From NCBI GenBank assembly GCA_002633005.1, contig NMRA01000023.1, positions 1,711,762-1,775,761 on the forward strand: DNA of 64,000 nucleotides, in the 5' to 3' direction. Numbering within the stretch: position 1 is the stretch's first letter; each line of letters begins with the position of its first letter. The DNA is from Phoronis australis (lineage: Eukaryota > Animalia > Phoronida). The notes beneath the pieces were generated by a model that saw only the letters and a program-made list of their open reading frames with translations, did not search any database and had not been told where the DNA came from. This document shows positions 6,701 to 9,700 of the stretch, piece after piece. The translations under genes and the position numbers were made by a program.

Positions 6701-9700
6701 CAGGGTGTTGATTTCTACAATGAGAAGTTGAATACTTTATGCATGCAGTGGCTCGGTGATCATGGTAGGCCTTGTTCTTACTCACCAGTTCTCCCCGTGG
6801 TATTTCTCTGCTCATCTCATCCTCGGCAAATTGATAAACTTCCCTTACATGTTGGTCCACATATACTTTACTATGGTCATAATTTGTTTTATTGTGTTCC
6901 ATGTCTGTTGTAATGTTGCAGTGGCCCGAGAGAGAACAGGCATTGAACAAACTTCTATACATTTATTTGAAATAAAAATGCAGAGACATTGTAGAATTTT
7001 GTGCTGCGACTACTAAAGTCTTTGAATCTGTCTTCCCGATGTCTTTCTTCTGTATTTGAGGTGGAGCGTGTCTGCTGATTGACAATTTTCTGTTCCTACC
7101 CCGTATGTGGTCATTTAATGGAGCTGTGTGCATCAGGGACACACCTCCGCAGCATTGTTCCCCTGGATAGCAGGCGGACCCTTGCCTGTCCATCAACACT
7201 TGTCACCAGGTCTCGTCTCCTCCCACTTGCAGTGTTTGCTATCAGGGAGGCGGCCACCAACAACCTGAAGAAGCTGGTGGAGAAGTTTGGCACCAAGTGG
7301 TCGGAGCAGAAGATGATCCCCTCTGTCAAGTACTTGGCCAACGAGCAGAACTACCTGAAGAGGCTCACGTTTCTCTTCTGTGTCAATGTAAGTCGCTGTG
7401 GTTATCTGAGCTGTGGGGTAAATAAGCTGTGACCGGTAGGTCCTGTAGAGATACACTGTATTGGTGGCAGTGGGATGGTTTGGGTTGTTGGGTAAATAAA
7501 CTGTGATCGGTAGGTCTCATAGAGATACACTGTATTGGTGATAGTGAGATGGTTTGGGCTATTGGGTAAACAAGCTGTGACCGGTAGGTCTCATAGAGAT
7601 ACACTGTATTGGTGATAGTGGGTGGGGTATGGTTTCATGTTAATGTACAGTGGGAATTATTGAATGTCTGCCTAATGATAGTTCAGTCTAATTGTCAATT
7701 TGGAGACATTTTAACCATGTAGCTGTGCAATTGACATGTGTGTGTCCATTGACTGTCTGACTGTATTGGTTCTAACAGCTGTTGTGTGTTATTGTTGCAT
7801 TACCTATGTTTTTCCAGATTGTAATGCCTGGTTTTAAGTTTAAGCTGTCACACTGTTTTTTTCAAGCTTGGGGCCTTTTTGTTGCTGCGTATGATTTGAA
7901 GCGTGCTGTCAGTTATTGATATATTGATACTGTTTAGTGGGGTGTGGTTTTGGAATCATTTGGACCCTTTTCACTCTCAAATTGACTGTTTCAGCATAAC
8001 CACTCTGTAATAATGAAAGTATTAACCAAGCCCTAAAACAGGCAGTACCAATATCACTCTTTTCTGATCTCTTTTGTCATGAAGCCATTTGACTGGAGGT
8101 AAAGTGTAAGGTTGCTTTGTCCACTGTGACTCAGCTGGACCGCTCTCCAAAATTCTTGTACACTATCAGCTCCTCAAAAATTTTCACAGCGCAATGATGA
8201 TGTAGCAACCTTAACCAATATTCAGTTTCTTGTACCTGTTAAAGTTGTGGATTTAGAAAACTGCTGCTTGGTAGGCAGAATACTTTAACAGTAAATTGTT
8301 ATTGCTTGTCAGCATAGGGTGAAACTGGTGTCCATGTTGCTGTGGTGCTAGTTTCTGTCTGGCTTTGTCAGCGGGTACCTGTTGTACATGTTACTCTCAC
8401 TCTGTCTTCTCTGCCTCTCTGCACTAAAGCCTGTGGTAATAATGAACTTGTGCATGGCCGACTCTCCCGTCTCTATTGGCAGGCGCTAGTGGACGTCGTA
8501 GACTCAGAAACGTGCATGAAACATCTGCTGCCCTTGGTGACTCAGCTGGCCGGCGACAATGTGGCCAACGTACGGTTCAACGTAGCCCGCACCATTCAGC
8601 TGCTAGGACCGCTCTGTGACGCAAGGTGTGCTTATAGTGATGTCGCTGCCTCTGCAGCTGGTGTTGGGCTTGAATTGGGTGTGCAGTAGATGGCTGGGCT
8701 TTATCTTGTGTTGGTGGTTATCTGACGCTTTGTTTCACCATTTAGTTTGAATGATGGGTACATTTGCACCCCAAGAAAAATTGTCATTGTGTTCAATGTC
8801 AGTTTTGACATTGTGGGTCTGAAAACTACAATCGACTCGAGACTAAAGCCCATGCCCTATAGCGGTGTTTGTTCACACACGCACACACTGTCTGCCTTGT
8901 TCTCTACCTGAATGGTGATAGTGGTAACGGCAGTCCCTGCACAGCCTGTGTGAACAAACCGCATGCGTGTCGTGTCAGTTTAAGACATGTCACCCAGGTG
9001 TGTGCCTTCTCTCTCCCATAGGTGATTGCGCAGTCGCTCAGTGCCGACACGGTCAAAAAGGTGCTGCTGCCAGTCATCGTGCAACTAGCCACCGACCCTG
9101 TGGCCAACGTCCGCTTCAATGTTGCCAAGACACTGCAGAGACTGGCGCCTCTGTTCCCAGAGAGGTAGGCGGGGCAGCCCCACTCACTTAACTGGTGGGA
9201 GGGGCATGCCCCTCTGTTGCCGTGCCCGCCAATAGGTGGCCTTTCTGTCAGTGGGCATCAATGTGCTGACTCTGCACGAGTTTCATGGATGGTCACCTGT
9301 TGATGTTACTTTTGCATATTTTTGCCATTATGTTCAGTAGTTTTGTTGATCAGATAACGGACTGTTTATTATGTTCCCACATGTACATATGTGGGTGCAT
9401 ATTGCTTTCATATGTGGCTGCATATTGCTGTCATATGTGGCTGCATATTGCTGTCATCTCTGTCTGGGCTTCCTGTGCTGTAACTCCAAAACCATCAGGA
9501 CAATCGTCATGAAACTTGACGTATGTATTCCTGCAGTGACAATAAATGATGAGGTCCTTGTGGACAGACCTGACTACCTCACGCTCCCAATAGCACTTCT
9601 ACTATTCTACGTTTGGACAGACCCGACTACCACACGCCCCCCAATAGCACTTTTAGCATTCTACGTTTGGACAGAATTGACCACCACATGCCCCTCAATA

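Follow-up and report, generated by a model that had tools for sequence, protein, structure and literature searches.

Accounts of PP2A diversity usually centre on the B subunits, while the scaffold is regarded as invariant or as the product of two paralogues. In vertebrates, two scaffold versions are encoded by PPP2R1A and PPP2R1B; the A-alpha and A-beta proteins are 87% identical, and A-beta is enriched in testis (PMC4612414, in its accessible text). A second described system is tandem duplicated exon substitution (e.g., human PKM and ACOX1, and fly cacophony), in which adjacent homologous exons of equal length and phase are included one at a time. In the human tandem-exon events, binding residues are mostly kept and their neighbours vary (for both statements, the available portion of PMC9741552). 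Here, we report a tandem duplication of the HEAT14 exon in a PP2A scaffold gene of Phoronis australis. The locus shares its arrangement and one-of-two inclusion with the described tandem exons, and two scaffold versions with the vertebrate paralogues.

By sequence, the gene encodes the PP2A scaffold subunit A (PR65), orthologous to PPP2R1A/B. The window, i.e., the whole stretch of 64,000 nucleotides that was analysed, encodes 422 amino acids that are 72-79% identical to the best animal orthologues (best mollusc match: 79% identity over 416 amino acids); the 5' part of the gene, for the first ~170 residues of the protein, lies outside it. For each of the two alternative exons, all 20 of 20 PDB sequence matches are PP2A scaffold chains, with exon A (the upstream copy; B is the downstream one) corresponding to approximately residues 510-552 of PP2A-A. 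A fold search with an orthologue model also returned PP2A-A, as expected. In a quick maximum-likelihood tree of 39 rows without an annelid reference, the protein clusters with molluscs and Lingula in a group of 11 rows (SH-aLRT 95); its branch is long (0.37), and its closest sequence is 79% identical. Some species labels in this tree are presumed ones, read off accession numbers. Because the tree has no annelid reference, we claim the lineage only as lophotrochozoan.

Table 1. Positions within the window of the PP2A-A exons and of the intron between the two alternative exons.
Feature	Positions	Strand	Evidence and remarks
Constitutive PP2A-A exons	559-706, 1259-1414, 1886-2000, 2276-2432, 2718-2817, 5524-5646, 6704-6764	+	AG/GT borders, single open frame
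Constitutive exon 12 (HEAT12 inner helix to HEAT13)	7233..7387	+	joints 6764>7233, 7387>8483, 7387>9022
Exon 13A, minor alternative copy	8483..8625	+	human-equivalent residues 507-554; carries K542R, L544I
Intron A-B, 396 nt	8626..9021	+	predicted strong fold; hairpin arms 8867-8882 and 8944-8959 (inverted repeat)
Exon 13B, major alternative copy	9022..9164	+	junction reads, spliced contig in X1, Pfam HEAT 28.7 bits
Constitutive exon 14 (HEAT15), acceptor for A and B	12182..12273	+	joints 8625>12182, 9164>12182, 12273>12776
Last exon, coding start and normal stop codon	12776..12798	+	joint 12273>12776, 88/60/74 reads (X2/X3/X4); frame

The HEAT14 exon is present as two homologous copies. Exons A and B are 143 nt each, run from phase 0 to 2 and have AG/GT borders. 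Their peptides are identical at 23 of 47 residues (tblastn E ~1e-11) and their DNA at 79 of 143 bases (55%). An earlier note on this DNA had described two homologous exons of this length and phase, 396 nt apart; its coordinates and peptides (23/47) are confirmed. In human numbering, the exons cover residues 507-554, the end of HEAT13 and all of HEAT14. This mapping and the PDB matches support the earlier placement of both exons inside the HEAT11-15 arm. No second copy of any other exon of the gene was found in the window by tblastn. Chance resemblance between A and B was considered and rejected: at the observed synonymous distance, none of 20,000 neutral-drift simulations gave at least 23 identities without a stop.

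The seven exons between 559 and 6764 are presumably the equivalents of human exons 5-11. We find that exons 11 and 12 have identities of 0.70 and 0.62 to lophotrochozoan orthologues, against 0.95 and 0.82 among the lophotrochozoans themselves. Exons 5-10 show no acceleration in this lineage. Substitutions encoded within 6704-7387 include Lys for the near-invariant His497 (37/38 orthologues), Ser for Ala478 and Ser for Lys485. From these comparisons, the whole HEAT12-14 arm seems to be accelerated in this lineage.

Exons A and B are spliced one at a time. We counted junctions in three raw-read RNA runs (X2, X3 and X4) from the same study, matched by species label and without tissue labels. Approximately 18-19% of each run was read, and a joint was listed if it had at least three reads from two starts. 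The donor of exon 12 splices to A or B: the joint into A (7387>8483) has 27/23/20 reads in X2/X3/X4 (70 in total) and the joint into B (7387>9022) has 74/72/91 (237). Out of A (8625>12182) there are 50/39/27 reads (116) and out of B (9164>12182) 94/68/114 (276). The four one-of-two joints thus sum to 699 reads, and each is present in all three raw runs. Against these, neither an A>B joint nor the 7387>12182 double skip appeared at the three-read threshold, in steady-state RNA where decay could hide such forms. All reads that leave the A donor enter exon 14 (50/42/33, agreement 1.0). Among the exons from 559 to 6764, RNA junctions were seen only into and out of 6704-6764. The one-of-two inclusion proposed earlier thus holds in the RNA, with all four joints counted. 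Exons A and B fit the class of tandem duplicated mutually exclusive exons: each joins both shared flanks, and no joint between the two reached the threshold.

How much A is used varies from run to run: it makes up 31%, 31% and 19% of junction reads in the three runs (p=0.002); taken separately, the upstream junctions give p=0.30 and the downstream junctions p=0.003. Exon depth points the same way, with 65/55/37 for A vs 118/94/149 for B (X2/X3/X4). X1, a contig set that we can only guess to be derived from RNA, contains only B, as a spliced contig. Contig sets drop the rarer variant, and so the lack of A in X1 proves nothing.

Several other features of the window were observed. The intron after B (9165-12181) has a steady sense depth of ~6-30 reads, compared with ~100 on exons, suggestive of slow splicing or intron retention. 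At two sites, X1 encodes another amino acid than the window and X2-X4 do: Gln for Glu near the end of exon 10 (5524-5646) and Thr for Ser at 7322. A 23-nt tandem repeat and its flank (9386-9473) draw hundreds of reads with foreign ends and are likely a dispersed transcribed repeat. On the minus strand, 17353-26819 holds a secreted frizzled-related protein-like gene, with an Fz exon (E 2e-30) and an NTR exon with a lysine-rich tail, and 39759-56460 a UMP synthase-like gene, with an OMP decarboxylase match at 39762-40013 and further likely exons to ~56400. Two near-identical ~0.7 kb copies lie within 59992-63302 (near 60000-60700 and 62600-63300); between them, a fragment at 61419-62000 without a Pfam match resembles a mobile-element remnant.

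The reading frame likely enforces the choice. With either exon alone, the frame stays open for 422 residues and ends at the normal stop codon, which lies in the last exon. As 143 nt is not a multiple of three, transcripts with both exons or with neither gain early stops: inclusion of A and B places a stop one codon after A, 231 nt upstream of the last junction, and skipping both places one two codons into exon 14, 83 nt upstream of that junction. The earlier claim that only one-of-two inclusion gives a full-length protein is borne out by the frame. Under the 50-55 nt rule, stops further than this upstream of the last junction lead to nonsense-mediated decay. Exclusivity is therefore likely to be secured by frame, with the both-in and both-out transcripts, whose stops lie >50 nt before the last junction, being removed by nonsense-mediated decay. 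Judged from the sequence, frame and the predicted decay are likely a sufficient account of the clean splicing pattern.

Folding of the A-B intron may assist exclusivity. Its folding z is -3.2 vs shuffles, the second most stable of 24 intron windows in the gene; 3 of the 23 others also reach z below -2.7, so we treat this as a lead only. Our scan for docking and selector pairings covered 21 region pairs. Two of these passed z -2, one located within the A-B intron (z -2.8) and a second pairing at z -2.2, and no Dscam-type docking/selector pair stood out. In steric clash of the alpha-tropomyosin type, the branch point of the second exon lies very near the first donor, with an AG-free zone downstream. 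This mechanism is not supported here: the nearest YTRAY is 97 nt from the A donor, with 13 AG dinucleotides between it and the B acceptor AG.

The A/B pair looks restricted to this lineage on sequence comparison. Of 170 metagenome loci encoding the exon, the best 80 each hold a single copy above threshold. Among these data, 23 loci reach from exon 12 through to exon 14 and include both introns. All 23 (18 distinct peptides) are single copy by a sensitive profile that, as a control, finds both copies in the window. Their exon borders are the same as those of the window and are thus common to other animals. Within species, no substitution of the HEAT14 exon was found in isoform clusters (30 listed, with at most 15 members each) from Lingula, sea urchin, gastropod- and bivalve-type RefSeq and three Branchiostoma sets. 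A search with exon 12 found no close relative (best 73% over the whole query), and the best 150 hits of a profile search over 1.84 billion representatives held no clear A- or B-specific orthologue. A homologue search with exon A alone gave 11 candidates, none of which scored. An A/B pair, which the earlier note had proposed to look for in related genomes, was absent from the 23 spanning loci and the isoform sets, with the nearest relative found being only 79% identical. The duplication would be old, with synonymous sites near saturation, yet confined to this lineage.

Three apparent hints of pairs elsewhere were rejected. The start of the sea-urchin exons is A-like, but both P0156 isoforms carry a single exon version, so the resemblance does not argue for a common pair. 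Differing exon versions among single-exon fragments raised the idea of pairs elsewhere, but the genomic loci hold single copies. Two entries with two identical exon copies (P0322 and P0356) look like annotation or assembly duplicates. The searches also returned two unusual forms of the gene. One 36.5-kb metagenome contig (L047/L054) carries the PP2A-A segment twice in opposite orientation, either an inverted duplication or an assembly artefact. In several bdelloid rotifer species, PP2A-A is annotated as fusions of 960-990 amino acids with an HGH1-like domain (P0155, P0163, P0176, P0186, P0202-P0204, P0211, P0357), which could be a shared gene-model merge or a real fusion.

Both copies are under purifying selection. 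Between A and B, dS is 1.62, dN 0.52 and dN/dS 0.32 (Fisher p=0.002). Fifteen columns are the same in 36 or more of 38 animal orthologues; 13 of them are retained in A and 14 in B. The two copies agree at 12 of these 15 columns vs 11 of the 32 others (p=0.005), and the invariant columns L522, D531, V533 and N535-A541 are intact in both. The earlier note's view that both exons are selected agrees with the dN/dS (0.32 at dS 1.62) and with the conserved columns kept in each; this selection would also lend indirect support to translation of both isoforms. The changes specific to A include two at near-invariant columns: K542R, where Lys is found in 38/38 orthologues, and L544I, where 36/38 have Leu and 1/38 has Ile. 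Beyond the 38-orthologue set, Arg at column 542 occurs in a few sequences (P0073, P0098, P0318).

We consider the best explanation, which we hold to be probable with some reserve, to be a duplicated HEAT14 exon spliced one-of-two, giving two likely tuned scaffolds. One-of-two splicing would give two full-length scaffolds. Each probably binds the catalytic subunit via a ridge that hardly changes between them; their differences probably lie in the linkers and outer helix, beside the HEAT12/13 hinge. They may thus be tuned variants, differing in HEAT13-15 arm stiffness or opening, in catalytic-subunit affinity via K542R, or in arm-partner contacts, and would be used in sample-dependent ratios. 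A functional difference between the isoforms is no more than likely, as this region also varies among orthologues.

Alternatively, the copies may be interchangeable: each would stay intact solely because it is translated and a defective scaffold does harm. The isoforms would then work alike, with their ratio a matter of splice-site strength. Most A/B differences are indeed at columns where orthologues differ as well. Few parts of PP2A-A vary more than this exon, with 10% of 703 orthologue pairs sharing no more than 23 of 47 identities; as the A/B distance lies inside this range, a functional split is not needed to explain it. HEAT12-14 is also fast-evolving overall in this lineage, and the pair is present in no other animal examined. 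However, both copies have survived until synonymous sites are nearly saturated, and both splice paths are in use, and A is altered at two near-invariant columns, one to a residue found in none of the 38 orthologues (K542R) and one to a residue found in a single orthologue (L544I). The A:B ratio also varies among runs, although this difference rests mainly on the downstream junctions and comes from three runs of one study, which weakens it as evidence for tuning. On balance, we regard interchangeable copies as unlikely.

The A/B differences fall mostly away from the presumed binding ridge. We mapped them on a predicted model of a sea-urchin orthologue (mean pLDDT 83). The exon spans the end of the HEAT13 inner helix, a linker, the HEAT14 outer helix, the intra-repeat loop, the inner helix and the linker to HEAT15. 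The linkers and helix end hold 10 of the 24 differences and the outer helix another 8; the intra-repeat loop has 2 and the inner helix 4. Across the HEAT14 intra-repeat loop and inner helix, 16 of 22 residues are identical between A and B. The catalytic subunit sits on the conserved ridge, the intra-repeat loop side, of HEAT11-15 (accessible parts of PMC8467178 and PMC1945078). On this model, the likely binding ridge for the catalytic subunit hardly differs between A and B, the exception being K542R in A. The title of the earlier note spoke of two versions of the region that binds the catalytic subunit. Its choice of region stands, but the implied two binding surfaces are an overstatement: the loop and inner helix are 16/22 identical, and the linkers together with the outer helix account for 18 of the 24 differences.

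A stronger alternative is that A binds the catalytic subunit, or another PPP catalytic subunit or arm regulator, much differently from B, like A-beta vs A-alpha. K542 lies on the inner helix, one turn from F538 and N539, and may be a catalytic-subunit contact; it is Lys throughout the 38 orthologues and Arg in A. The ridge-side residues 530, 532 and 546 also differ between A and B. Moreover, HEAT14-15 is contacted by the ligase adaptor KBTBD4 in human cells, for which it is a docking site, according to the available part of bioRxiv 10.64898/2026.03.02.709011. Against distinct interfaces, the loop and inner helix are largely shared, Lys to Arg is conservative, Arg at 542 is also found in the three sequences named above, and none of the open papers searched gives K542 as a contact. 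We therefore consider two distinct interfaces quite improbable. HEAT13-15 moves as one rigid unit that pivots on a hinge at repeats 12/13, as the accessible text of PMC11141623 describes. The position of most differences off the binding ridge, this hinge and the KBTBD4 docking together favour tuning of the arm: on the model, it is more likely that the isoforms tune the arm than that they present two different binding sites.

That A is a decaying pseudo-exon, or that haplotypes or paralogues were assembled in tandem, is barely credible despite the X1 contigs with B only: sense-strand intronic reads span all of 7388-9300, including the A-B intron, and no variant is listed inside either exon, which together rule out a two-haplotype assembly, while reads on A and on B align at >=99% and lead into the same neighbouring exons, the 55% DNA identity is far past allelic distance, and A itself is under purifying selection.

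Returning to tuned scaffolds, a bolder form is possible, and we put it forward tentatively: this lineage may have remodelled the catalytic-subunit arm of PP2A-A, with a regulated exon switch making scaffolds with different catalytic-subunit affinity or arm partners. If true, splicing would select the PP2A core enzyme, a layer of control that our searches did not turn up, and the pair would serve as a natural test of the roles of the HEAT14 outer surface and Lys542. A splice-swapped HEAT14, with both versions abundant and under selection, would be another route to core-enzyme diversity. A and B also offer a clean two-allele comparison (24 residues in one repeat) for the effect of HEAT13-15 on opening, catalytic-subunit binding and partner choice. 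The weight of this is limited, as the pair is known from one invertebrate lineage, from sequence and RNA reads.

We found no literature on tandem exons in PP2A-A, among mostly open papers; both isoforms may already be present in the annotation of this species. The supplement of a human catalogue (PMC8373072) contains no PPP2 genes, with the controls PKM and ACOX1 present. The supplement with a fly gene list (PMC9741552) contains no Pp2A, CG17291 or paa-1, with the control cac present. In PMC13247117, PP2A is named only in a reference. The earlier note knew of no description for PP2A-A, and the literature and the human and fly catalogues yielded none.

The A/B pair differs from each of the known systems it resembles. 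Most known tandem-exon events are kept across wide clades, whereas the PP2A-A pair was found in no other animal examined. Vertebrate A-alpha and A-beta are encoded by two genes and differ chain-wide, whereas the Phoronis pair differs at 24 residues of one exon; within that same exon, a vertebrate alpha/beta pair is identical at 36 of 47 residues, compared with 23 of 47 for A and B. The earlier note's proposal that exon duplication here stands in for the two vertebrate genes is a possibility only, as the comparison covers the window and a second scaffold gene may exist elsewhere in the genome. The PP2A-A isoforms of Lingula, Branchiostoma, sea urchin and gastropods likewise arise by alternative splicing of a single scaffold gene. 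In the region viewed, those isoforms differ at the extreme C-terminal tail (one is without the region), and none swaps the HEAT14 exon. Thus, the Phoronis exons are a new case of tandem-duplicated mutually exclusive exons, a splicing class already known, and lie in a core signalling gene where such a pair was not expected.
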